Source: an uncultured Gammaproteobacteria bacterium (GTDB lineage Bacteria; Patescibacteriota; Patescibacteriia; UBA11705; JABHMO01). From it: DNA of 64,000 nt. The stretch spans positions 154,697 through 218,696 of the forward strand of contig CAZPYM010000002.1 in NCBI GenBank assembly GCA_964590105.1, in the 5' to 3' direction. This document shows, piece by piece, positions 4,900-49,900 of this stretch. A program made the translations under genes and the position numbers. Each line of letters starts with the position of its first letter. Positions within the stretch are counted from its first letter, which is position 1. The notes under the pieces are model-generated. The model did not search any database and had not been told where the DNA came from. It saw only the letters and a program-made list of their open reading frames with translations.

Positions 4900-6206
4900 A
4901 GGGTTTTGAAATTATTATTTTTGACTAACGATAAAACGATTGCGACGAGCATTATTCCAAAATAAAAACTCCACAAGTAGTGATCAAATAGGGCTAGGCC
5001 GGCCAGGGCGGCGAGACAGGTGAGCCCGGTCAGGCGTTCGGCGGACCAGGACACGCATTTGAATAGATTAAATAAAACATAAAAAACAAACAAAAGGATC
5101 GAGGCTAAGCCGAGAATCCCAAGCTCGGCAAAAATCAGCAGATAAGTATTGTGAATTGGCTGATAGTCCCAAGCCGATTTTGTTGAATCCTGCGAATAAA
5201 GCCGGACAACATAATTTCCAGGTCCGGTTCCGGTTAGCCAGGTAGATGTTAAAATTTGTCCTGCTTCGCCGTATTGTTCAACGCGCGTAACATTTGAAAT
5301 GTTTTCTACTCGGTTGCTTGACAGCGTTCTGGTTAAAATCAGCTCGGGAAATGAAACCGTGAAAACTACAAAAATAAATAAGGCGATCAGCGCGAATTTG
5401 GCTGAAGCCTTATTTAAGACAATGTTTTTTCTGGACAAGAAAGTAAGAATGATTATGCCGACAACAAAAGATAAAATTGCAGCCCGGGATAAAGTCGTCA
5501 TTAAGCCAAGAAAGTTAACAACAAAAACCAAGCGCAGAAGATTTTGCGGTTTTTTCGTTTTGATGATTGAATACAGGCCGATGATTAAAATTAAACCGAT
5601 AACTAAAAATCCTGCTAAAATATTCGGATGGGGCAATGAGCCGAAACTTCTGAGCCACCTTAAATTTTCCAGCTGAACAACCGGCACCCCGAGCGTTTCA
5701 GGATTTTGTCCAGCCATTCCCAGCCATTTGTTGGCAAATATTTCTTGCGTCATGAATTGTTGGATGGCCAAGATGCTTTGCAAAAGACCGCCTAAAATAA
5801 TTGCCCAGGAAAATTTTTGCCAATCAAGTTTCATCGCCGCTATTATGGCGAATAGAGCCGCCGCCATAATTAAGTGGCTGAATTTATAAAATGCAAGTTG
5901 CGGGTTTAAAGCAAGAAAGCAAGAAAGCGAGACGAGTAAGAGAATTAGGACTAACAAAAACACTCGTCTTAATTGTTTTTTTGTTTTTTTGATTTCCTGA
6001 TTTTTTACCAATCGCGCGATTGCGTAAACAATCGATAAAATAAGGATTAACCCAAATAACAATTCCGTCGCATACAAACTGAAAGTGCCGTATTCCCATT
6101 TTTCTCCGTTTAAAAATCCCTGCTGGTAGATCCAGCGGGTTTGCAGTGGCAGTAGAAAAATGAAAGTGTATAATAGCCATTCTATTGTTTGTTTGAGATG
6201 TCGCAT
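4896..6206 (-). CDS. O-antigen ligase / Wzy-like polytopic membrane protein.
   Basis: 436 aa, >10 predicted TM segments, loop architecture typical of the O-antigen polymerase/ligase family. Family call is tentative. Confidence 0.5.
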   Translation of the reverse strand: MRHLKQTIEWLLYTFIFLLPLQTRWIYQQGFLNGEKWEYGTFSLYATELLFGLILILSIVYAIARLVKNQEIKKTKKQLRRVFLLVLILLLVSLSCFLALNPQLAFYKFSHLIMAAALFAIIAAMKLDWQKFSWAIILGGLLQSILAIQQFMTQEIFANKWLGMAGQNPETLGVPVVQLENLRWLRSFGSLPHPNILAGFLVIGLILIIGLYSIIKTKKPQNLLRLVFVVNFLGLMTTLSRAAILSFVVGIIILTFLSRKNIVLNKASAKFALIALFIFVVFTVSFPELILTRTLSSNRVENISNVTRVEQYGEAGQILTSTWLTGTGPGNYVVRLYSQDSTKSAWDYQPIHNTYLLIFAELGILGLASILLFVFYVLFNLFKCVSWSAERLTGLTCLAALAGLALFDHYLWSFYFGIMLVAIVLSLVKNNNFKTL

Positions 6207-6380
6207 ATTATGAATAGGGCGGAATTGCGCTGTTGTGGGGGTTCAAAATCCTGAACCTTTACAACGCGGCGCGTTTTTATGTCTTGACCTGGCCGCCTTT
6301 TCTTGTTAACATAATAAGGCTTTTGTTGTTGTTTGACAATAAATCTCTCGACTGCGCTCGAGATCTATGAGGAGGGAAAA

Positions 6381-6782
6381 ATGTTTTATGCCCAGATAGC
6401 TTTTTTTTCGGTATTCTCCCTGTTCGCCGCGTGCGGCAGTTCCGCGAACAAGTCGGAAAGCAAAAAAGACGTTGACCCGGTGTTGCGGCAAACAGCTGAT
6501 GAAGCGTCGTGCGATCGGTTTGCCGAGGGCGAAGTCAAAGTGTTGAGGCGCGCTCAGACGCTCATGTGCCTGAACAATGGCGACGCCGGTGTTGTGCTGG
6601 AGCTGGCTTCAGAGCCGAGCGAGGACAGCGGCACGAAGATTGTTTACGATCTGCCTGCGCGTGGTTCGCAAAAATTCACCTTGCCCTTTATTGACGGATT
6701 TACAGTTAATGATATTTACGCTCGCCTTGATCGCGGCGAATGGCGCAAATTGTGCCGGGGAAGTAATCCGGCCGAAGAATAA
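6381..6782 (+). CDS. Small lipoprotein with 4 Cys. High-GC cassette.
   Basis: Start at the internal Met preceded by GAGGAGGGAAAAATG. Lipobox LFAAC-G. GC visibly higher than the backbone. No family recognised. Confidence 0.55.
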   Translation: MFYAQIAFFSVFSLFAACGSSANKSESKKDVDPVLRQTADEASCDRFAEGEVKVLRRAQTLMCLNNGDAGVVLELASEPSEDSGTKIVYDLPARGSQKFTLPFIDGFTVNDIYARLDRGEWRKLCRGSNPAEE

Positions 6783-6818
6783 ACTTATAGTCGATTGATC
6801 GCAATATCCGTAATACAA

Positions 6819-6845
6819 CTTCCGAACGCATTCGGGAGTTTTTTG
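6819..6845 (+). terminator. Intrinsic terminator cttCCGAAcgcaTTCGGgagTTTTTT. Near-identical copy at 13196..13225.
   Basis: 5-6 bp GC stem plus U-run. ~30 nt nearly identical to the second copy. Confidence 0.6.
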
Positions 6846-6869
6846 TTGAATAAAGTATTTCTGCCCGGC

Positions 6870-6898
6870 TTGACAGCGCAGATTTTTTCACTTATACT
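6870..6898 (+). promoter_or_regulatory. Sigma70-type promoter TTGACA-17-TATACT upstream of the radical-SAM gene.
   Basis: TTGACA at 6870-6875, 17-nt spacer, TATACT at 6893-6898. SD GAAGGAGG 6 nt before ATG at 6962. Confidence 0.55.
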
Positions 6899-6961
6899 GT
6901 TTTATTCTGATTGCACTTTGACAAGTCGATTCATTAACCTTTGGCAGAAGGAGGATAGGCA

Positions 6962-8326
6962 ATGCCGAGGAAGCAGCAGTTTGAAGTTGACGGCGTGAGG
7001 CACGCCACTATCAATGGTCATCGCTTTCATTTGCGGTGGACTGATCCGGGGAAAGATAATTTTCTCTGGATTGACGGCAAGCAGCCGCCATTGATACTGG
7101 ATCAGACAGCGGCAGATTTTGTCGCGCATTTGATTGACGCCATGTGGCTATTTCAGACCGGCGCGGGAGACAATTCTGCCCAAGTGATTAGACATGTTGT
7201 AGACAAAATGTATGACTGCTACGGGCGATCATCGATCATTCGAAAAAAGCGGGTCACAAGGGCCAGGATTGAAGCGGATTTCCAGCGGATTTTCGGCATG
7301 CTTATGGCGGTGGCCGACAGCGGTTGTCCGTATGAATCCGGGCTTGATTCCAAGGAGATCAATTATGGCGTCTGGGCGGCGCCGGCGCGCATGGATCTGG
7401 CAGTGACGTATCGATGCAATCTGCAGTGTAGCAAATGCTATCTTGGCGAGCGTAGCTCGCCGGATATGCCATTCGAATCATGGTTGGAAGTCTACAAAAG
7501 GCTTTGGGAAATCGGCATTTCACAGGTGGTGTTCACCGGAGGGGAGCCTTTGCTTCGTCCGGACATTGTGCAGTTGGTGTCCGAGGCAGACGAATTTGTC
7601 ACCGGGCTTATCACCAATGGAACAGAGCTCGCCCGGTTGGCACAGCCGTTGCGCGACGCCAGCCTGGATTATGTCCAGGTGACGATTGAATCTGCTTTCC
7701 CAACGGTTCACGATCTGATGACACAGACGCCCGGTTCATTGATGAAGACAATGGCCGGCATCAGGGCGGCGGTTGAGTGTGGATTACAGGTGGTGACCAA
7801 TACAACTCTGACAAAAGAGAATGCTGATGGTTTTTGCCGGCTTTTGCGCCAGTTAGAAGGACTCGGCGTGAAAAATGTCGCTTGCAACACGCTCATTTGC
7901 AGCGGACGCGGCACATATCATCGCATGCAGAATGGTCTTTCTGATGCAGAATTGCTCGCCGTAATCAAGCCGGCGCTGGCTGTGGCAAGAGACCTTGGTC
8001 AGAATCTGCAGTGGTATTCGCCGACCTGTTATAATCAGGGTGTGAATCCGATTGAGCTGGGCTTTGGCGTGAAGGCGTGTTCAGCCGCAGCTCACAACAT
8101 GATGGTTGGGCCGGATGGCGAAGTGTTTCCGTGCCAGTCATGGCCGAAATCGGTTGGAAACATCTTGCTGAATAGCTGGCCGGCAATCTGGGAACATCCC
8201 ACGTGCGTGGCTTTGCGCAATCACGAAATGGCGCCCGCGGCTTGCCGCGATTGCGAGCATTTGTCCGTCTGTGGCGGAGGATGCCCGCTCGACAAGGACG
8301 CGCGTCTCGGCGAGGTGAAGTCATGA
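6962..8326 (+). CDS. Radical SAM / SPASM-domain protein with ~130 aa N-terminal (RRE-like) extension. Putative peptide/protein-modifying maturase.
   Basis: CNLQCSKC (CX3CX2C, Cys152/156/159). C-terminal Cys cluster C-X2-C-X5-C-X3-C (CRDCEHLSVCGGGC) plus upstream CNTLICSG / CYNQG / CSAAAH, typical of the SPASM twitch. Stop overlaps the next start (ATGA). Confidence 0.85.
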   Translation: MPRKQQFEVDGVRHATINGHRFHLRWTDPGKDNFLWIDGKQPPLILDQTAADFVAHLIDAMWLFQTGAGDNSAQVIRHVVDKMYDCYGRSSIIRKKRVTRARIEADFQRIFGMLMAVADSGCPYESGLDSKEINYGVWAAPARMDLAVTYRCNLQCSKCYLGERSSPDMPFESWLEVYKRLWEIGISQVVFTGGEPLLRPDIVQLVSEADEFVTGLITNGTELARLAQPLRDASLDYVQVTIESAFPTVHDLMTQTPGSLMKTMAGIRAAVECGLQVVTNTTLTKENADGFCRLLRQLEGLGVKNVACNTLICSGRGTYHRMQNGLSDAELLAVIKPALAVARDLGQNLQWYSPTCYNQGVNPIELGFGVKACSAAAHNMMVGPDGEVFPCQSWPKSVGNILLNSWPAIWEHPTCVALRNHEMAPAACRDCEHLSVCGGGCPLDKDARLGEVKS

Positions 8327-9294
8327 ACAAGAGCATACTGGCGCTGCTGGCTTTTTGCCTGGCCCTGCCTGCGACAAAAGCGTTGGCCGGCGATACCGGC
8401 ACATACGAAATTCTGGATTACAGGGTCAATCTGACGCCGCGCGCTGACGGCACGGTGGATATTGACTATTATCAGAAATGGGCAGTGACCGGCGGGCACA
8501 TTCCATGGATTACGGTCGGCCTGCCGAACAGCGATTACGAAATCAAGAAAAGTTCAGGCAATGCCGCCTCCATCAAGCCGGCCAATAGCGGCGGTTGGAG
8601 CGGTGTTCGTCTGGATCTAGACCGGGATTATCAGCCGGACGAGACATTTGAGGTGAACTTTTCCATTGTTCAGACCAAGTTGTTCTGGGCTGATGAAGAA
8701 AAGTATTACCTCGCATACACTCCGGGCTGGTATGATCAGGCTCCGGTTCATAACTTGGACGTAACGGTACGCTTTTTTGCCAAGCTGGAATCGGTCACGG
8801 CCGAGCCGGAACCAAGCAAAAATGGCGATGAAACTTTGAGCTGGCAAACTTCGCTGGGCAAGGGCCAGAAGTTCAGCTTTGAGATTTCTTTTCCAAAGGC
8901 AGTGTTTGAGCAACCGATTTCGGAAGAAAATCTGAAAGATACTGGCGGAGTCGGTTGGTTGATCATCCTCATTATCTTCATTCTGCTAGTTGTCGTTATT
9001 ATTTTCCTCGCCGCCAGCGGAGTTTTTGGCGGGGGCGGATTTGGCGGCGGGGATGATGACGACGGGTACAGCGGTGGTAGCATTTTTTACGGTGGCGGCA
9101 GCGGAGGCGGATCTGGCGGTGGCGGCCGTTCAGCCGGCGGCGGAGGTGGCTTTGGCGGACGAACCAGTTCGTGCGCCTGTGCCTGTGTATCCTGCGCCTG
9201 TGCTTGCGCTTGCGCCGGCGGCGGCGGGGCTGGTTGCGACCGCAAAGCCAAGCATCTGTGTCCTGTTTGCAATCAAACAAGGGCAGAGAGCTAG
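8323..9294 (+). CDS. DUF2207-like exported membrane protein with Gly-rich tail extended by a (Cys-Ala)n repeat and a CxxC end.
   Basis: The start overlaps the rSAM stop (ATGA). Signal peptide MNKSILALLAFCLALPATKALA. ~200 aa ectodomain resembling the DUF2207 N-domain (TYEILDYRVNLTPRADGTVDIDYY...). One TM (WLIILIIFILLVVVIIFLAA). Tail GGGGFGGGDDDDGYSGG...GGGGGFGGRTSSCACACVSCACACACAGGGGAGCDRKAKHLCPVCNQTRAES. Confidence 0.7.
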   Translation: MNKSILALLAFCLALPATKALAGDTGTYEILDYRVNLTPRADGTVDIDYYQKWAVTGGHIPWITVGLPNSDYEIKKSSGNAASIKPANSGGWSGVRLDLDRDYQPDETFEVNFSIVQTKLFWADEEKYYLAYTPGWYDQAPVHNLDVTVRFFAKLESVTAEPEPSKNGDETLSWQTSLGKGQKFSFEISFPKAVFEQPISEENLKDTGGVGWLIILIIFILLVVVIIFLAASGVFGGGGFGGGDDDDGYSGGSIFYGGGSGGGSGGGGRSAGGGGGFGGRTSSCACACVSCACACACAGGGGAGCDRKAKHLCPVCNQTRAES

Positions 9295-9367
9295 CCGGAT
9301 TACGGCTAAATAGAAAACAATTCCCTGGACCTAGTTAAGTTCAGGGAGTTTTATTTGTATGGGACAC

Positions 9368-9396
9368 TTGACAAATTATAAGTTTCTTTATATGAT
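9368..9396 (+). promoter_or_regulatory. Sigma70-type promoter TTGACA-17-TATGAT.
   Basis: Consensus hexamers with a 17-nt spacer, ~50 nt upstream of ATG 9445 (SD AAGGGAGG). Confidence 0.5.
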
Positions 9397-9444
9397 TTTA
9401 TAATTACCCGAACATTGACAACTGACAAATTAAGGGAGGGTTTA

Positions 9445-10647
9445 ATGCAAAAGCTTAGTGTTGTGCTATTGCTGATTGCGGGCGCTGTTTTTACCGGCTG
9501 CAGTGAACAGCTGGGGGCGCTCGGAGGAACGTTTGCGCGTTCTTTGCTTTTCGTGCTTCCGTTTATCGCAGTCATGATTGGCATTATTTTTGCAATGAAC
9601 AAATGGATCGTTGATAGCCGCGGCGCAACAAATGAAAGACTTTGTTCAGCTGTCGGCGTTGTTAGTTTTCCGGTTTTGTTTTTCGTAGCCTTTTACTTGT
9701 ACTGGGGCTGGAGCTGGTGGGTCATCGGCGCCGCTTTTTTGCTCGGCGGGCCAATCGGCTGGTTCAGCTATACGCTCGATGAGCTTTTGGTAGAATTTTG
9801 GGAAAATCGAGTTGTTACCCTGCCGGGACTTGTCGGGTTGATTCTTGGAGGCGCGGTGATTGTCTCGTTTTTTACCGGCATTTGGCTGGAAGGCGATATG
9901 TATGTAACGAACAAGGCCTGTTCAGCTCGGGCAGTGGTTGAAAGATATAGCGAGACCTGCACCAAGGACGATGATGGGGTTCGTAGCTGTTCCGATTCCT
10001 GGGATTACTACTATCATGTTGACCGAATTGCTGATGGTTGGCAATTGCCTTCCCTGGAAAAAGGAAGAGATTACCAGCTCGGTCGCGGTGATTATGGCCG
10101 AGAAGACCGAGTTAGATTAGAATCATATTTTCTGATTGGCGGGCAGTTTTATTCTGAAGAACAAAAGCAATGGACAGAGTTTCGTTGGCTTGTTCTGAAA
10201 AAAAAGATCCCGGTGGAGTTGAGGCAGGTGCAACACATCCGCAGCAACTTTTACGGGAATCCGGCTGAAAACGCAGGCGCTGTTAGCGAGCCGGCGCCAT
10301 TGCCGGAGAGTGTGGCGGCAAGGGTGTTGACCGGTGATGATCTGCCGCCCGGATCAACAACAATGAAAGCCATTTCAATTGTTTGGGATACGGTTAAGCT
10401 ACTTTTTTCAGAAGAAGAATATAGGGGAATATTGTATATCTTCTTATGTGTTTTTGCATTAATTGGAACGCTGGCATTTTTTGTGCCGGTAACAAGGCCT
10501 TCAGTAGCGGCATTTACGAGTTGTTTTTTCATAATCGCTCTAATTGCAGTAATGATTATTGCGGCCAGAACCGGCAGTCTTGGTTCCGGCAGACGCCGGC
10601 GTTCTTCCGGCGGCGGCGGATTTGGTGGAAGAACGTTTACGCGTTAG
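9445..10647 (+). CDS. Polytopic membrane lipoprotein with Gly-rich C-terminal tail (GGGGFGGRT). Possible paralogous partner of the DUF2207-like protein.
   Basis: Start at the internal Met (MQKLSVVLLLIAGAVFTGC lipobox) with SD AAGGGAGGGTTTAATG. Predicted 3-4 N-terminal TMs, a ~200 aa soluble domain and 2 C-terminal TMs. Ends ...RRRRSSGGGGFGGRTFTR, the same motif as the preceding protein. Confidence 0.6.
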   Translation: MQKLSVVLLLIAGAVFTGCSEQLGALGGTFARSLLFVLPFIAVMIGIIFAMNKWIVDSRGATNERLCSAVGVVSFPVLFFVAFYLYWGWSWWVIGAAFLLGGPIGWFSYTLDELLVEFWENRVVTLPGLVGLILGGAVIVSFFTGIWLEGDMYVTNKACSARAVVERYSETCTKDDDGVRSCSDSWDYYYHVDRIADGWQLPSLEKGRDYQLGRGDYGREDRVRLESYFLIGGQFYSEEQKQWTEFRWLVLKKKIPVELRQVQHIRSNFYGNPAENAGAVSEPAPLPESVAARVLTGDDLPPGSTTMKAISIVWDTVKLLFSEEEYRGILYIFLCVFALIGTLAFFVPVTRPSVAAFTSCFFIIALIAVMIIAARTGSLGSGRRRRSSGGGGFGGRTFTR

Positions 10648-10657
10648 GGAGGTGATA

Positions 10658-11230
10658 ATGCGAAAAACATGTTTTCTGTTTGTCTTTTTGGCATTGCTAT
10701 TTAATGCTTGCTCTAAGGATGAGCAGGCTGATCAGCAGATGCCGGAAGCATCAAAGTACGGAGACCAAGCGCGGGTTCTCACGGGAGAGCCGGCGTTTCC
10801 GGCGCTGGAAAAAAGTTGGATTATTGACAAAGCCAATGCGGTTTCATTAGAAGTTGAAAGGACCGCCGATGCCGTTTTGCAGTCATTGCAGGACGACGGA
10901 TTGGCTGAAGTTGTTGTGTTAATTATCACAGGGGTGAAAAAGCCCGGTGACTATGCTACTCAATACGGACGTTTTCTTCAACTGGGCAAAGCAGGGCCGG
11001 CTTCGGACGGAGGAAACAGAGGCATTGTCTGGTTGGTCAGACCGGATGCTGATGAAAAAATGACCATCTCGGTTGGTCGCGGACTGCCCGGTTTTACCTC
11101 GCAGGACTATGGCGAGATTATGGACGCCGTGGGTGATTATTGTCAGTTCAACAATTATGACAAATGCGTGCAGAGACTCGCGGAAAAGACCAGTGAGGTT
11201 TTGCGCCGGCTGCAAAAAGTCAAACCCTAA
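10658..11230 (+). CDS. TPM-domain-like (DUF477/YgcG-type) lipoprotein.
   Basis: Start at the internal Met with SD GGGAGGTGATAATG. Lipobox LFNAC. Segment GIVWLVRPDADEKMTISVGRGLPGFTSQDYGEIMDAV resembles the TPM core. Family call is tentative. Confidence 0.45.
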   Translation: MRKTCFLFVFLALLFNACSKDEQADQQMPEASKYGDQARVLTGEPAFPALEKSWIIDKANAVSLEVERTADAVLQSLQDDGLAEVVVLIITGVKKPGDYATQYGRFLQLGKAGPASDGGNRGIVWLVRPDADEKMTISVGRGLPGFTSQDYGEIMDAVGDYCQFNNYDKCVQRLAEKTSEVLRRLQKVKP

Positions 11231-11252
11231 ATGCGACAAGGAGGCAAACCGC

Positions 11253-11900
11253 ATGAAAAAGGGAACAATCATTCTTCTCGCAGTGCTCGGAGTCTTCATT
11301 CTCGGCGGTGTGTCCATGTGCAGTTCTGTGGTGGGCGTGTGGAACACGCTCAACAGCAACTACCAGGGCGTGCAGGCCGGCAAATCGCACTACGGTGCGG
11401 CGCTCGACATCGTGCCGGAAAAGATCAAGGGAGTGTGGCAGCTCTCTGATCAGTATTTGGATCACGAATCCGACACATTCAAGATGGTGGCGGCGGCTAG
11501 GAGCGGACTGCTCCAATCCATCGATGGTTTCAAAAAGGCTGAGCAGGGCGGCGCTTCTGATGCGGACATGCTGAAGAATGGCCAGGGCGTCATGGACATG
11601 TTCAACAAGTTCAAGGATGCTAGCCTGGCAGTCAATGTGCAGATCGAGGCCTATCCGCAGCTTCGTGGCGCGGAAACAACCAAGACGGCCATGCGGGCAG
11701 TCGAGGAAGGCGTCAATGAAATCAAGACGGCGCTGGACGACTGGATCGCGTCCATCAAGGTGTACAATGAGTATCGCGGCAGCGCCTGGCCATCCATTCT
11801 TGGAGGATTTATGGCCAAGTTCCCGGTCGAGATTCCCTACTACGAAGCGGAAAGGACAAAGCTCAATATCGATGAGCTGAATCCAAAAAGCAACAAGTAG
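11253..11900 (+). CDS. LemA family protein.
   Basis: Start at the internal Met (MKKGTIILLAVLGVFILGG...) with SD AAGGAGG. N-terminal TM, then WNTLNSNYQGVQAGKSHYGAALDIVPEKIKGVWQL... consistent with LemA (PF04011). Family call from memory. Confidence 0.65.
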   Translation: MKKGTIILLAVLGVFILGGVSMCSSVVGVWNTLNSNYQGVQAGKSHYGAALDIVPEKIKGVWQLSDQYLDHESDTFKMVAAARSGLLQSIDGFKKAEQGGASDADMLKNGQGVMDMFNKFKDASLAVNVQIEAYPQLRGAETTKTAMRAVEEGVNEIKTALDDWIASIKVYNEYRGSAWPSILGGFMAKFPVEIPYYEAERTKLNIDELNPKSNK

Positions 11901-11996
11901 CGCCCTCGTGCGCTAAATAAAAATATCTTCCAGAGAACGTTCTGGGAGATTTTTTGTTAGACAAAGAAGCTTAATTTGAACTAAAATCGCGCGCCA

Positions 11997-12025
11997 TTGA
12001 CATTTCTATATAATTTTGCTATAGT
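11997..12025 (+). promoter_or_regulatory. Sigma70-type promoter TTGACA-17-TATAGT.
   Basis: Consensus hexamers. SD GGAGGTGGAGACATG at 12064. Confidence 0.5.
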
Positions 12026-12063
12026 TAATTGTTGTCATTTGACAATTTAACGGAGGTGGAGAC

Positions 12064-12597
12064 ATGGTTACTCTAGCAATCATTTTCGTCGTTGGGCTGT
12101 TTGGATTGGCCGCGAGCCTTTGTTATTTGTTTTTTAGCAACAGAGTACATTCGGGCGTCAGCCTGGCGATAATTTCCTTGCTTGCTTCTCTTTTGATTCT
12201 GTTATTTGCCGGCTTTAATCTGATTAGTCAGAATCTTGATCTTAAGTCGGAGGAGGAAAGTCCGCGCGTCGAGGAAGGTGAGCCAGTTGAGCTGAATCCT
12301 TCGGGTTGCGTGCTTGAATGGAAAGATTTGCGAATCGTAGGAAACTACGGCGCGATCACGGTTGCAAATAAGTCGAATGCCGACGTTGAAGTCTGGGTGT
12401 CTGCGACCGGCATGAGCCTACAGGCAAAGCTGGAACCCAAGCGCGGCATCCGTCTTCGTTCCGGCGTGAGGTTTCCGGAAACAGACATGGCCTGGACAGT
12501 GAAGCTCTCGACCGGCGAGAGCCGAAGCTTCGACTTCTTGAATTGTTTGCCGCTTGCTTGCGATCTTCAACCAGCATATGGGCTGGAACGGGAATAG
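12064..12597 (+). CDS. Hypothetical membrane-anchored protein (2 N-terminal TMs plus ~110 aa domain).
   Basis: ORF with strong SD. High GC. No recognisable family. Confidence 0.5.
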   Translation: MVTLAIIFVVGLFGLAASLCYLFFSNRVHSGVSLAIISLLASLLILLFAGFNLISQNLDLKSEEESPRVEEGEPVELNPSGCVLEWKDLRIVGNYGAITVANKSNADVEVWVSATGMSLQAKLEPKRGIRLRSGVRFPETDMAWTVKLSTGESRSFDFLNCLPLACDLQPAYGLERE

Positions 12598-12606
12598 GAG
12601 GACAAC

Positions 12607-12900
12607 ATGGGCGAAATATTCCTGCTGTGGTTTGGCCGTTTGTGCCTGCTGTTGGTAGGGCTGGCGGTTGTCTGGTGGTTCAGGCAGTCGTGCGGAGACA
12701 TTTGGTCAAGCGTTGAAGAACGGATTCCAGTTTTGGCGCTCGGCCTTTTCGCTCTGGTGATTTGCGCGCTGACCTTTGCACCGCCTCGAATCAACTATTT
12801 GAAGTATCCGCCGGTAATCAGAGCCATGAACGCGCCGGCGCCTGATCAGATCTCACGATGTCTTGAAGGGAAAATCAACATTCCGATTTGTCGGAAATAG
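12607..12900 (+). CDS. Small hypothetical membrane protein (2 TM).
   Basis: SD ATAGGAGGACAACATG. Hydrophobic segments. High GC. Confidence 0.4.
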   Translation: MGEIFLLWFGRLCLLLVGLAVVWWFRQSCGDIWSSVEERIPVLALGLFALVICALTFAPPRINYLKYPPVIRAMNAPAPDQISRCLEGKINIPICRK

Positions 12901-12910
12901 AAGGGGGCCC

Positions 12911-13180
12911 ATGGTTTCCATGTATATTACTCTTGCGTGGTTAATGATCATTGTGACTTTGTTTTTGGCTTTGGGCGCGTGGAGCTATTGGAGTGAACCG
13001 CCCGAACCGGCAAAAGCAATTTTTTGCGGATTGCTGGCGACAGCACTCCTTCTCCTGGCTGGAGTTTTCTTTGTGCGCGCGCAGAATGAGCAGAAAAAGA
13101 TAAAGGCGGCTATGCTAGAGGTGGAAGACACCGTCATCCATGAAGACCTGCTGGACGTCAAAAGCAGGCAACTTCCATAA
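12911..13180 (+). CDS. Small hypothetical membrane protein (2 TM).
   Basis: Internal Met start preceded by AAGGGGGCCCATG. Two hydrophobic helices. Confidence 0.35.
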   Translation: MVSMYITLAWLMIIVTLFLALGAWSYWSEPPEPAKAIFCGLLATALLLLAGVFFVRAQNEQKKIKAAMLEVEDTVIHEDLLDVKSRQLP

Positions 13181-13195
13181 TTCAATGAATAAAAA

Positions 13196-13225
13196 CTTCC
13201 CGAACGCATTCGGGAGTTTTTTTTG
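13196..13225 (+). terminator. Intrinsic terminator cttCCCGAAcgcaTTCGGGagTTTTTTTT. Right-hand copy of the island boundary repeat.
   Basis: Stem-loop plus U-run. Near-identical to 6819..6845. Confidence 0.6.
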
Positions 13226-13260
13226 TTACGAATTACGAATCTGCTACGAATCTACGTATC
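13225..13260. repeat. TACGAAT heptamer array (gttacgaattacgaatctgctacgaatctacgtatc). Second copy lies upstream of nusA at 16842..16888.
   Basis: ~35-nt near-identical block at two loci 3.6 kb apart. Confidence 0.6.
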
Positions 13261-37025: not shown

Positions 37026-37571
37026 ATGGCGAAAAACCAAGATGAAGATCGTGAAAAAAAGGGCTTCTGTATTTTGCCCTACATTGAAGGTCATTTCGTA
37101 CGCGACCATTGCGAGGCGAAATTAAGAATTTTCGTCGGGAACAACAAGAAAGACAGTTGTATTTTTTTTGAACTGGATGTTTGGACGGCGAAGGGTTTGT
37201 CCGCCGGGATGAGAGAGTTTTTCAAGGTGGTCTTAAATGTTGGAGAAGATAATTCTGGCCTGGTTGTCCTGTCGGCTGGCGAGGAGAACGTCGCGAAACT
37301 AGGATATCATTTCGTGATGTCCTGGCCGCCGGTGAAAGGGCGGGTGGAAATGCGAGACGTCATGACGATTGACGAGCTTCGTTATTTGGCTTGTGACGCA
37401 TTTTGCGAAATGAATGGGTTGACTGCCGCGGTTGCAGAAGATCAGGCCGCCGCTCCGCCGCTGGAAGACAATCCTTTTGCCGAGGAGGATGGTCGCTTGG
37501 CCGAGCCTCCGGATTTGCCGGCGGCGAGTTTGTCGAGAGAGGACGAGGATCGCGACTGCGATTCTCCGTGA
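37026..37571 (+). CDS. Hypothetical acidic protein. High-GC cassette gene.
   Basis: SD AAGGAGGTCGCTATG. cccTTGACAA motif twice upstream. Terminator follows. Confidence 0.45.
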   Translation: MAKNQDEDREKKGFCILPYIEGHFVRDHCEAKLRIFVGNNKKDSCIFFELDVWTAKGLSAGMREFFKVVLNVGEDNSGLVVLSAGEENVAKLGYHFVMSWPPVKGRVEMRDVMTIDELRYLACDAFCEMNGLTAAVAEDQAAAPPLEDNPFAEEDGRLAEPPDLPAASLSREDEDRDCDSP

Positions 37572-49402: not shown

Positions 49403-49900
49403 ATGAAGAAGGTTTATCTGTTTGTTTTCGCTCTGATACTGGTTGGTTTTTCTTCAGCTTCGGCCGGGGAGAACAAATCCTTTACCGGGTACATCCAGGT
49501 GGATGACAACTGGAAGGATGTGCGAATCCTCCGTAACGTGGCCTTCAGTCCCGACGGGACAAAGATGCGCGTTGTTGAGAGGGTGGAGACCATGCTGGTC
49601 GAATGGGTTCGTTCCGACATGGGGCGGTGGATCTTCCGGTCGGTAGTGGAGAACGGCGTCTGGTTCGACCAAATCGTGGTTGAGAAAGACAAGACTGTCT
49701 GGGCCGAGAAAATCGGCGATGGTGGCGACAAGATTTTCCGTTTCGAAGCAACGCGCGTGACGGAAGGCGTGGACAAATGCTACAACTACCGTTGCGGTGC
49801 GATCTACCAAGTCGAGGCAATTCCCTCGTCCTGCAAGTGGAATGGGCCGGGGGGGGGCTGTACGATTTCAGAAGATGACAAGAAGAGCCTTGTGAAGTAG
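49403..49900 (+). CDS. Secreted hypothetical protein (signal peptide, 4 Cys near the C-terminus). High-GC cassette gene.
   Basis: MKKVYLFVFALILVGFSSASA signal. C-terminal CYNYRCG...SCKWNGPGGGCT. GC visibly above the backbone. Confidence 0.5.
   Translation: MKKVYLFVFALILVGFSSASAGENKSFTGYIQVDDNWKDVRILRNVAFSPDGTKMRVVERVETMLVEWVRSDMGRWIFRSVVENGVWFDQIVVEKDKTVWAEKIGDGGDKIFRFEATRVTEGVDKCYNYRCGAIYQVEAIPSSCKWNGPGGGCTISEDDKKSLVK

Follow-up and report, generated by a model that had tools for sequence, protein, structure and literature searches.

A 64,000-nucleotide stretch of contig CAZPYM010000002.1 (assembly GCA_964590105.1), hereafter the window, contains at 6230-13226 a region with a GC content of 50.9%, against 41.4% over the remaining 57 kb, and no other multi-kb stretch of the window reaches ~0.48 GC. 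Nine open reading frames (ORFs), g1-g9, all on the + strand, fill the region. Of these, g2-g9 form a ~6.4-kb horizontally acquired block, inserted where two housekeeping-flank genes converge in a genome of low GC in which use of Shine-Dalgarno (SD) sequences is rare; its gene content and named relatives suggest Patescibacteria. The block opens with g2, encoding a radical S-adenosylmethionine (rSAM)/SPASM enzyme, and g3, encoding a membrane protein whose Cys-Ala tail is most likely modified by g2, judging from sequence features and gene linkage. Taken jointly, we consider it probable that the block is an acquired island carrying an rSAM maturase together with the tail substrate of that maturase. 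The features of the region are as follows.

6381..6782, +, g1, 133-amino-acid (aa) lipoprotein-like protein; backbone gene by positional orthology
6822..6844, +, left copy of the 23-nt repeat CCGAACGCATTCGGGAGTTTTTT, the terminator hairpin after g1; repeat and hairpin
6870..6898, +, promoter-like site P1, TTGACA-17-TATACT, 11/12 consensus match, upstream of g2-g3
6962..8326, +, g2, 454-aa radical-SAM/SPASM enzyme; Pfam matches and motifs
8323..9294, +, g3, 323-aa single-pass membrane protein, probable substrate; model and homologues, ATGA overlap with g2
9169..9270, +, segment encoding the near-invariant tail motif of g3; homologue alignment
9319..9396, +, terminator-like hairpin (9319-9350), then promoter-like site P2 (9368-9396, 11/12)
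9445..10647, +, g4, 400-aa polytopic lipoprotein-like membrane protein; Gly tail shared with g3
10658..11230, +, g5, 190-aa TPM-domain lipoprotein; PF04536
11253..11900, +, g6, 215-aa LemA-family protein; PF04011
11925..12025, +, terminator-like hairpin (11925-11950), then promoter-like site P3 (11997-12025, 11/12, TG extension)
12064..12597, +, g7, 177 aa, two predicted transmembrane (TM) helices; lineage-specific accessory
12607..12900, +, g8, 97 aa, two predicted TM helices; lineage-specific accessory
12911..13180, +, g9, 89 aa, two predicted TM helices; lineage-specific accessory
13197..13222, +, terminal hairpin terminator (13197-13216) containing the right repeat copy (13200-13222)

An initial sequence-only reading of the window had described a GC-shifted stretch with nine + strand ORFs, and both were recovered. 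GC at third codon positions (GC3) is shifted as well, averaging 0.57 in the island ORFs versus 0.435 (standard deviation 0.074) in 46 backbone ORFs, and 48-51% GC is also found in g4 and g7-g9, accessory genes whose products are not rich in Gly. A GGAGG core, which that reading had assigned to every gene, lies upstream of seven of the nine, the exceptions being g3 (GAGG) and g9 (AAGGGGG). Its statement that the backbone rarely has such sites was correct, with a 5-mer SD in just 4 of 46 backbone ORFs when any in-frame start within the first 80 codons was permitted; a recognisable SD is missing from most backbone genes of the window. The three near-consensus promoters occur exactly where they had been placed (6870, 9368, and 11997); all agree with the consensus at 11 of 12 positions, and each lies 3' of a terminator-like hairpin. 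With T for terminator and P for promoter, the transcription layout reads g1-T, P-g2-g3-T, P-g4-g5-g6-T, and P-g7-g8-g9-T. No Rfam family reached its gathering score in the window, hence no riboswitch. Pfam gave no match above gathering score for g1, g3, g4, or g7-g9, and no NCBIfam model matched g1 or g3 or, above threshold, g7-g9.

The g2 product belongs to the radical SAM superfamily (PF04055, 1e-21, above the gathering threshold) and to its SPASM subgroup (PF13186, 3.5e-9, 37.2 bits versus a cut-off of 21.5). The rSAM motif CX3CX2C (C152/C156/C159) is invariant among homologues, as are the SPASM cysteines C373-x13-G-x4-C391 and CX2CX5CX3C (C428/C431/C437/C441). No Cys follows C441, and the usual final cluster ligand would thus come from elsewhere. 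In the structural model (predicted local distance difference test score, pLDDT, 77.5), four short strands (12-46) and three helices (48-120) precede the rSAM barrel and the SPASM domain. This beta3-alpha3 arrangement, spanning aa ~10-125, is read as a domain resembling the recognition element (RRE) by which maturases of RiPPs (peptides made on the ribosome and modified after translation) bind their substrates. By hhalign, g2 residues 19-120 align to a region of a Chloroflexi paralogue that Pfam calls PqqD, and in this paralogue the CX3CX2C motif has been lost. SuiB was the best structural match, aligned to the model over 351 residues versus ~270-285 for enzymes without an RRE; SkfB and CteB were in the top ten, anSME was among the top matches, and NifB was present. 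From this modelled structure and the indirect homology of the N-terminal domain, we read g2 as an RRE-rSAM-SPASM enzyme. Two other ideas were tried and set aside, a defence system (PADLOC gave only generic similarity to pVip rSAM cores, 51 bits) and a phage source (no relative was found in IMG/VR).

According to the model and topology prediction, g3 comprises a signal peptide (aa 1-22), a beta-sandwich ectodomain (24-195), a TM helix (210-231), a Gly-rich linker (232-282), and a Cys-Ala motif (283-316), the tail being disordered in the model. The ectodomain is modelled with pLDDT >90, and signal cleavage is predicted before an invariant DTGTY. It is ~50% identical among homologues, with DTGTY and GGHIPWITVG among the invariant motifs of its own, and its fold resembles Ost1/ribophorin I and M1-aminopeptidase N-domains, a likeness confined to the fold, at 6-14% identity and with no catalytic domain. 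The sequence-only reading had called g3 DUF2207-like, and this call failed: PF09972 did not match g3 at E<=0.1 and matched 0 of 44 family members at E<=1, while one distant Lachnospiraceae relative scored 18.7 bits, below the cut-off of 24.4. The sole Pfam signals in the g3 family were weak matches to Cys-rich families.

The C-terminal motif of g3, S-CACAC-VS-CACACACA-GGGGAGC-x[RK]K-xxH-xCPxC, has a single occurrence in the window (chance expectation 0) and corresponds to a family consensus of GGGGGFGG-x3-S-CACAC-V[SAG]-CACACACA-GGG[GA]AGC-x[RK]K-xx-H-x-C-P-x-C. Among the 120 best g3 homologues, the motif ends all 116 non-fused proteins and is internal in the other four, which are fusions to a TPM domain. 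Invariant in a 44-sequence alignment were C291-A298 (CACACACA), G299, G300, A303, G304, C305, K308, C313, and C316, such that invariance extends to the alanines A292, A294, A296, and A298 no less than to the cysteines. In total, ten Cys and one His are conserved within ~34 residues, including CxC repeats and the terminal H-x-C-P-x-C.

A tail-independent search, using the g3 ectodomain and TM helix as query against 1.84 billion cluster representatives, returned 393 relatives at E<=1e-3. Of the 108 full-length relatives among the best 150 of these, 92 contained a run of (CA)>=3; several of the others appear to be frameshifted or degenerate. The 54-aa tail alone as query gave 57 candidates and one match, this low-complexity query being poorly suited to the word index. 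Tail form varied by group, with Firmicutes members carrying ...(CA)n-GGGRAGC[ST]xKDFY and Chloroflexi and archaea encoding a ~570-aa protein that terminates at ...CACACACACAGGGR. Firmicutes members (L014 6929-8242 and related Lachnospiraceae) have two insertions after the TM region and ahead of the Cys-Ala run, a zinc-ribbon and a conserved S-[SD]-P-N-T-[YF]-x-x-V segment, the second of which could be an enzyme-recognition sequence of these members. A g5-type TPM domain is fused to a g3-like protein in six cluster representatives, in the order ectodomain-TM-tail-TM(lipobox)-TPM. This order, the signal peptide and single TM helix, and the basic residues C-terminal to the TM helix in g3 homologues together predict a cytoplasmic tail, which places it within reach of an oxygen-sensitive Fe-S enzyme.

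Homologues of g2 (~60% identical) are abundant, as are those of g3, and hosts include Desulfobacterales, Krumholzibacteria, Zixibacteria, Latescibacteria, Aminicenantia, Planctomycetes, Verrucomicrobia, and Patescibacteria. We scanned GTDB with one genome per species, using the tail pattern as seed and ectodomain similarity as confirmation. The 48 loci recovered extend the distribution to Dehalococcoidia, Chloroflexi, the Methanomassiliicoccales among the archaea, and many Lachnospiraceae and Oscillospiraceae of rumen and gut. A g2-family rSAM/SPASM gene was adjacent to and co-oriented with the tail protein in 46 of these 48 species loci; of the two others, one was cut by a contig end and one had the rSAM gene ~2 kb away. 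Starting from the rSAM alone, the tail protein was found directly downstream in all six distinct loci (6/6). Start/stop overlaps between the two genes were frequent, and in the window the ATGA coupling of g2 and g3 claimed by the sequence-only reading was confirmed as an overlap at 8323-8326. The neighbourhood comparison that it had proposed therefore found the pair widespread and not peculiar to the island. All hosts found look anaerobic. Clustering of neighbouring ORFs over ~50 loci identified no universal gene besides the pair.

Pairwise distances of the rSAM core and of the ectodomain were correlated (r=0.84, Mantel p=0.001, 44 pairs), so the two families travel and diverge together, a correlation that is confounded by common organismal phylogeny. 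Further points likewise weigh against g2 acting on the tail. Adjacency and co-divergence would be equally expected for an operon of interacting, non-modifying proteins, and the 48 tail-seeded GTDB loci alone cannot show that the tail is universal. The Pfam PqqD model does not match g2 itself. Moreover, g2 scored far below every NCBIfam rSAM/SPASM equivalog cut-off (best 99 bits versus 265-650; equivalogs compared were PqqE, NirJ, AhbD, GeoRSP, ScmE, StsB, SbtM, SkfB, MftC, ACGX, and WgkB), as did its Firmicutes and archaeal relatives. Finally, CxC repeats are also classic metal-binding motifs.

Several loci showed departures from the simple pair. In three Chloroflexi loci (L045, L046, and L050; e.g., L050 10007-11182 and 11175-11936), the active rSAM is followed by a pseudo-rSAM paralogue that has a PqqD/RRE region and lacks CX3CX2C; in L050, genes for a class I SAM methyltransferase and for a major facilitator superfamily transporter come after it. 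In these three loci, as in the Methanomassiliicoccales locus L049 (in which the pseudo-rSAM paralogue was not detected), a conserved ~120-aa protein is encoded upstream of the tail protein. Two tail-bearing paralogues surround one rSAM gene in some loci of Lachnospiraceae and Clostridium (L021 4044-8146, L023 2001-6120, and L036 6911-9548), and one enzyme may therefore serve several substrates. In a few Firmicutes loci (L016 8086-11378, L017, L021, and L023), an ATP-binding cassette (ABC) ATPase lies 0.2-3 kb from the pair, together with a MacB/FtsX-type permease in L016. ABC transporter genes are too sporadic near the pair to count as conserved.

Given these data, we propose that g2 is a cytoplasmic radical-SAM/SPASM maturase and that the translationally coupled g3 is its substrate. 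The RRE-like domain would bind the g3 tail, and 5'-deoxyadenosyl radical chemistry, with the auxiliary Fe-S clusters of g2, would modify the Cys-Ala repeat. The product may be Cys-S-to-carbon thioether cross-links of the sacti-/ranthipeptide type, with the invariant Ala as acceptors, and the modified tail would remain attached to the membrane protein. This choice of chemistry is drawn from analogy and is tentative, falling somewhat short of an even chance even if the tail is modified. Thioether links are favoured because RRE-rSAM-SPASM enzymes, among them AlbA, SkfB, CteB, and PapB, put such cross-links on Cys-rich substrates; QhpD forms them on a protein subunit. Moreover, the Ala residues are as invariant as the Cys, which is expected for acceptor residues and not for spacers. 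Of other rSAM chemistries considered, formylglycine formation of the anSME type was set aside, the C-x-[PA]-x-R motif being absent from the tail, and alternating epimerisation in the manner of PoyD/EpeE found no specific support.

The g2-g3 pair resembles known systems in parts. AlbA/SboA, SkfB/SkfA, CteB/SCIFF, PapB/PapA, and SuiB/SuiA have the RRE-rSAM-SPASM layout as which g2 is read here, and in these systems, as for g3, an adjacent, co-oriented substrate gene encodes a Cys-rich C-terminal target. Unlike the substrates of these systems, g3 exceeds 300 aa and has a secreted folded ectodomain and a TM helix in place of a short leader-core peptide; nor is a protease or exporter conserved, and the alternating Cys-Ala repeat fits no NCBIfam precursor or maturase model. 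QhpD/QhpC (QhpC being the quinohemoprotein amine dehydrogenase gamma subunit) and anSME/sulfatase are parallels for rSAM/SPASM enzymes that modify a Cys of a lasting functional protein, as proposed for g2, and anSME is a top structural match; here, however, there is no quinoprotein or sulfatase context, and the C-x-[PA]-x-R motif is lacking. QhpC and sulfatase substrates are exported after modification, whereas the modified segment of g3 would stay cytoplasmic. The linkage of an rSAM enzyme to a Cys-tailed membrane protein, raised by the sequence-only reading, is real and, so far as Pfam, NCBIfam, and the literature that could be searched go, undescribed: the pair is covered by no model of either database, and no paper was found tying radical SAM to LemA, TPM, YgcG, DUF2207, or the CACACA motif, with subscription journals outside the coverage of the search. 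What is new lies in the substrate class, the motif, and the envelope-module context, the enzyme class being familiar, as is its logic.

The same cysteines could serve another purpose. The Cys-Ala tail may be a metal or Fe-S site, such as a metallothionein or cluster scaffold, in which case g2 would build or load a metallocofactor or act as a redox partner, without a covalent cross-link. An extended strand with alternating Cys would set ~seven thiols on one face, and the ten conserved Cys and the His in ~34 residues, with their CxC repeats and terminal H-x-C-P-x-C, would suit such a site. The weak Cys-rich-family matches as sole Pfam signals, the anaerobic appearance of all hosts found, and the ability of some SPASM-type enzymes to assemble cofactors (NifB, itself among the structural matches of g2) point the same way. 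Simple metal ligation would, however, not need the invariant A292, A294, A296, and A298, the layout read for g2 is that of peptide maturases, with RiPP maturases as its best structural matches, and neighbour-ORF clustering revealed no conserved metal transporter or chaperone nearby. On balance, we regard a purely metal-binding tail as unlikely.

Should g2 modify the tail, its product might instead be released, with g3 acting as a giant RiPP precursor whose tail is a core peptide, modified by g2 and cleaved to yield a bioactive Cys-rich peptide, and the rest serving as a membrane-tethered leader. A C-terminal core beside a maturase with an RRE-like domain resembles a RiPP system, Chloroflexi and Methanomassiliicoccales proteins end right after ...CACACACACAGGGR, and a MacB/FtsX-type ABC transporter lies 0.2-3 kb away in a few Firmicutes loci. 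Yet across ~50 loci the pair has no conserved protease or exporter alongside it, and the supposed leader is a conserved folded ectodomain with the invariant DTGTY and GGHIPWITVG. The six fusion representatives have the tail as an internal loop before a TM helix and the TPM domain, and a cytoplasmic tail would need an export route, none being encoded in the window. Cleavage and release are therefore decidedly improbable, and a modified tail retained by g3 is the reading that we carry forward.

To place the pair in its genome, we compared the flanks of the block with those of relatives. GroEL, GroES, NUDIX, and Wzy_C genes lie to the left, and genes for f314 (314 aa), a PRC-barrel protein, YidC, NusA, S6, and SSB to the right. 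A metagenome scan with f314 retrieved eleven related loci (L055-L065). Ten of them (L056-L065) keep the order NusA-YidC-PRC-f314 | Wzy-NUDIX, with f314 and Wzy adjacent or <= ~1 kb apart and g2-g9 absent in all; since these syntenic relatives lack g2-g9, the block is an insertion. In L056 and L057, a g1 homologue is the single gene between f314 and Wzy, oriented as in the window and 24-34% identical to g1, versus ~54% identity for neighbouring genes. With these positional homologues in loci without g2-g9, g1 is a fast-evolving backbone gene and not cargo. It is GC-richer than its surroundings in all three genomes (6381-6782; L056 1724-2182; L057 10969-11394). The sequence-only reading had drawn the island from 6206 to 13225 with the lipoprotein g1 included; the insertion of g2-g9 stands, whereas g1 drops out and the start moves from 6230 to ~6.84 kb. 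The GC step begins at ~6.25 kb, and it is synteny and the repeat that put the insertion start after g1.

The 23-nt perfect direct repeat CCGAACGCATTCGGGAGTTTTTT, at 6822-6844 and 13200-13222, brackets exactly g2-g9, its copies lying 6378 bp apart. It has only these two exact copies in the window, and each forms a terminator hairpin. In the closest relative, L055 (f314 61% identical), g9 and g8 adjoin f314 with the same GC step, so the insertion is common to at least one sister lineage. The junction in L055 bears a hairpin related to, but different from, that of the repeat. That the two copies in the window are still identical is puzzling if the insertion predates the L055 split. One or both junctions were seen in contigs of several samples and pipelines (JGI, ENA, and Logan; L001 and L068-L073), and two independent assemblies (L068 and L069) span the whole block. 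This recurrence in independent assemblies excludes an assembly chimera. Horizontal acquisition, as proposed from composition, is thereby borne out by ten empty-site loci, the contrast in GC, GC3, and SD use, and the flanking repeat. Of the usual marks of a genomic island, empty sites, composition contrast, and flanking repeats are present and mobility genes are not.

Two points count against an insertion: the ORF list and tRNA scan revealed no integrase, transposase, or tRNA in the window, and the GC excess may come partly from protein-composition constraints. In L003, L005, and L066, three further low-GC contigs, the homologous cassette exceeds its flanks by 7-13 GC points; in Zixibacteria, Krumholzibacteria, and Aminicenantes, it equals them. 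That the block is no insertion at all, being a chimera in this metagenome-derived sequence or a native region whose GC is set by Gly/Ala/Cys-rich proteins, as the GC-rich cassettes of the three low-GC contigs and the want of mobility genes and tRNA in the window might suggest, is barely credible in view of both junctions being reproduced in independent assemblies (L001 and L068-L073), the absence of g2-g9 from ten syntenic relatives, the shift of GC3 and not of total GC alone, the 48-51% GC of g4 and g7-g9, which are not Gly-rich, and the perfect 23-nt repeat on both sides. In L003, L005, and L066, the four-gene cassette (rSAM, tail protein, TPM, and LemA) sits in three different housekeeping contexts; together with its GC, this suggests repeated acquisition of the cassette by low-GC genomes. 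Elsewhere in the window, two backbone ORFs (49403-49900 and 37026-37571) differ from their neighbours in having a GGAGG site and a high GC3, of 0.69 and 0.56, respectively.

Downstream of the pair, g5 belongs to the TPM family (PF04536, 2e-11, 44.4 bits versus a cut-off of 22.1, profile positions 1-122 of 125) and g6 to the LemA family (PF04011, 2.8e-10, 40.7 bits versus 26.2, N-terminal TM helix at 5-23). The rSAM/SPASM, TPM, and LemA calls of the sequence-only reading were thus upheld, PF04055, PF13186, PF04536, and PF04011 all scoring above gathering. Its Gly-rich tail for the TPM protein was not, with g5 having no such tail. A TPM gene follows the g3-like gene, with LemA fourth, in L002, L003, L005, L008-L011, and L066. 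TPM and LemA accompany the pair in one subfamily only, that of the window. The rSAM enzyme is therefore a partner of the LemA/TPM module, as had been put forward, within that subfamily, and the conserved unit is the rSAM gene with the Cys-Ala-tail gene. The six g3-TPM fusions argue for a functional tie of TPM to g3.

The remaining cargo is particular to this lineage. As claimed, g4 shares the Gly tail of g3: its C-terminus, ...GGGGFGGRTFTR, equals the Gly motif found in g3 just ahead of the Cys-Ala run, and the tail-coding DNA of the two genes is 74-90% identical. It may share a partner, or the RRE-like domain, with g3. By neighbour-ORF clustering, g4 and g7 occurred in no other locus's cassette, while g8 (83% identity) and g9 (47%) recur only in the close relative L055. 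The description of g7-g9 as three tiny membrane proteins suits g8 (97 aa) and g9 (89 aa), with two TM helices each, and not g7, at 177 aa.

This gene set recalls the LemA-TPM(YgcG)-DUF2207 neighbourhoods, in which g5 and g6 would be the TPM and LemA members, and the plan of g3 and g4 (signal peptide, ectodomain, TM, and Gly-rich tail) is typical of YgcG and DUF2207 proteins. It differs from those neighbourhoods in that g3 lacks PF09972 and in having, in addition, an rSAM enzyme and a Gly tail extended by Cys-Ala. LemA-DUF2207 gene pairs are reported to recur, a membrane-restructuring role has been suggested for LemA, and a streptococcal DUF2207 protein has a stress and biofilm phenotype (PMC12631010). 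We propose that g3 acts with the TPM lipoprotein g5 and LemA g6 as a cell-envelope complex, to which g4 and g7-g9 would have been added here. Envelope homeostasis or sensing is a reasonable guess at the role of such a g3-TPM-LemA assembly.

Radical-SAM/SPASM maturases are known chiefly for making small peptides that are secreted. In the present case, a membrane protein is the conserved partner, and its tail motif is among the most conserved short sequences in these proteins, being common to Patescibacteria, gut and rumen Lachnospiraceae, and Methanomassiliicoccales archaea. The island also illustrates cleanly how a reduced, low-GC genome has gained genes, since relatives with an empty site and with a filled site are both available. 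If g2 modifies the tail, the pair would represent a new substrate class for RiPP-type enzymes and a testable biochemical entry point to LemA/TPM/Gly-tail membrane modules, and the (CA)n-GGG[GR]AGC motif could be used to annotate hundreds of protein clusters. We see an evenly balanced case for a wider proposal, namely an unrecognised and widespread class of modification in which a RiPP-type rSAM/SPASM maturase turns the cytoplasmic Cys-Ala tail of a membrane protein into a lasting cross-linked or cofactor-bearing structure. If true, an envelope-sensing or membrane-organising complex would have a modified intracellular 'foot' in anaerobic bacteria and in some archaea, and this would provide the first functional handle on the Gly-tailed LemA/TPM/YgcG-type modules.

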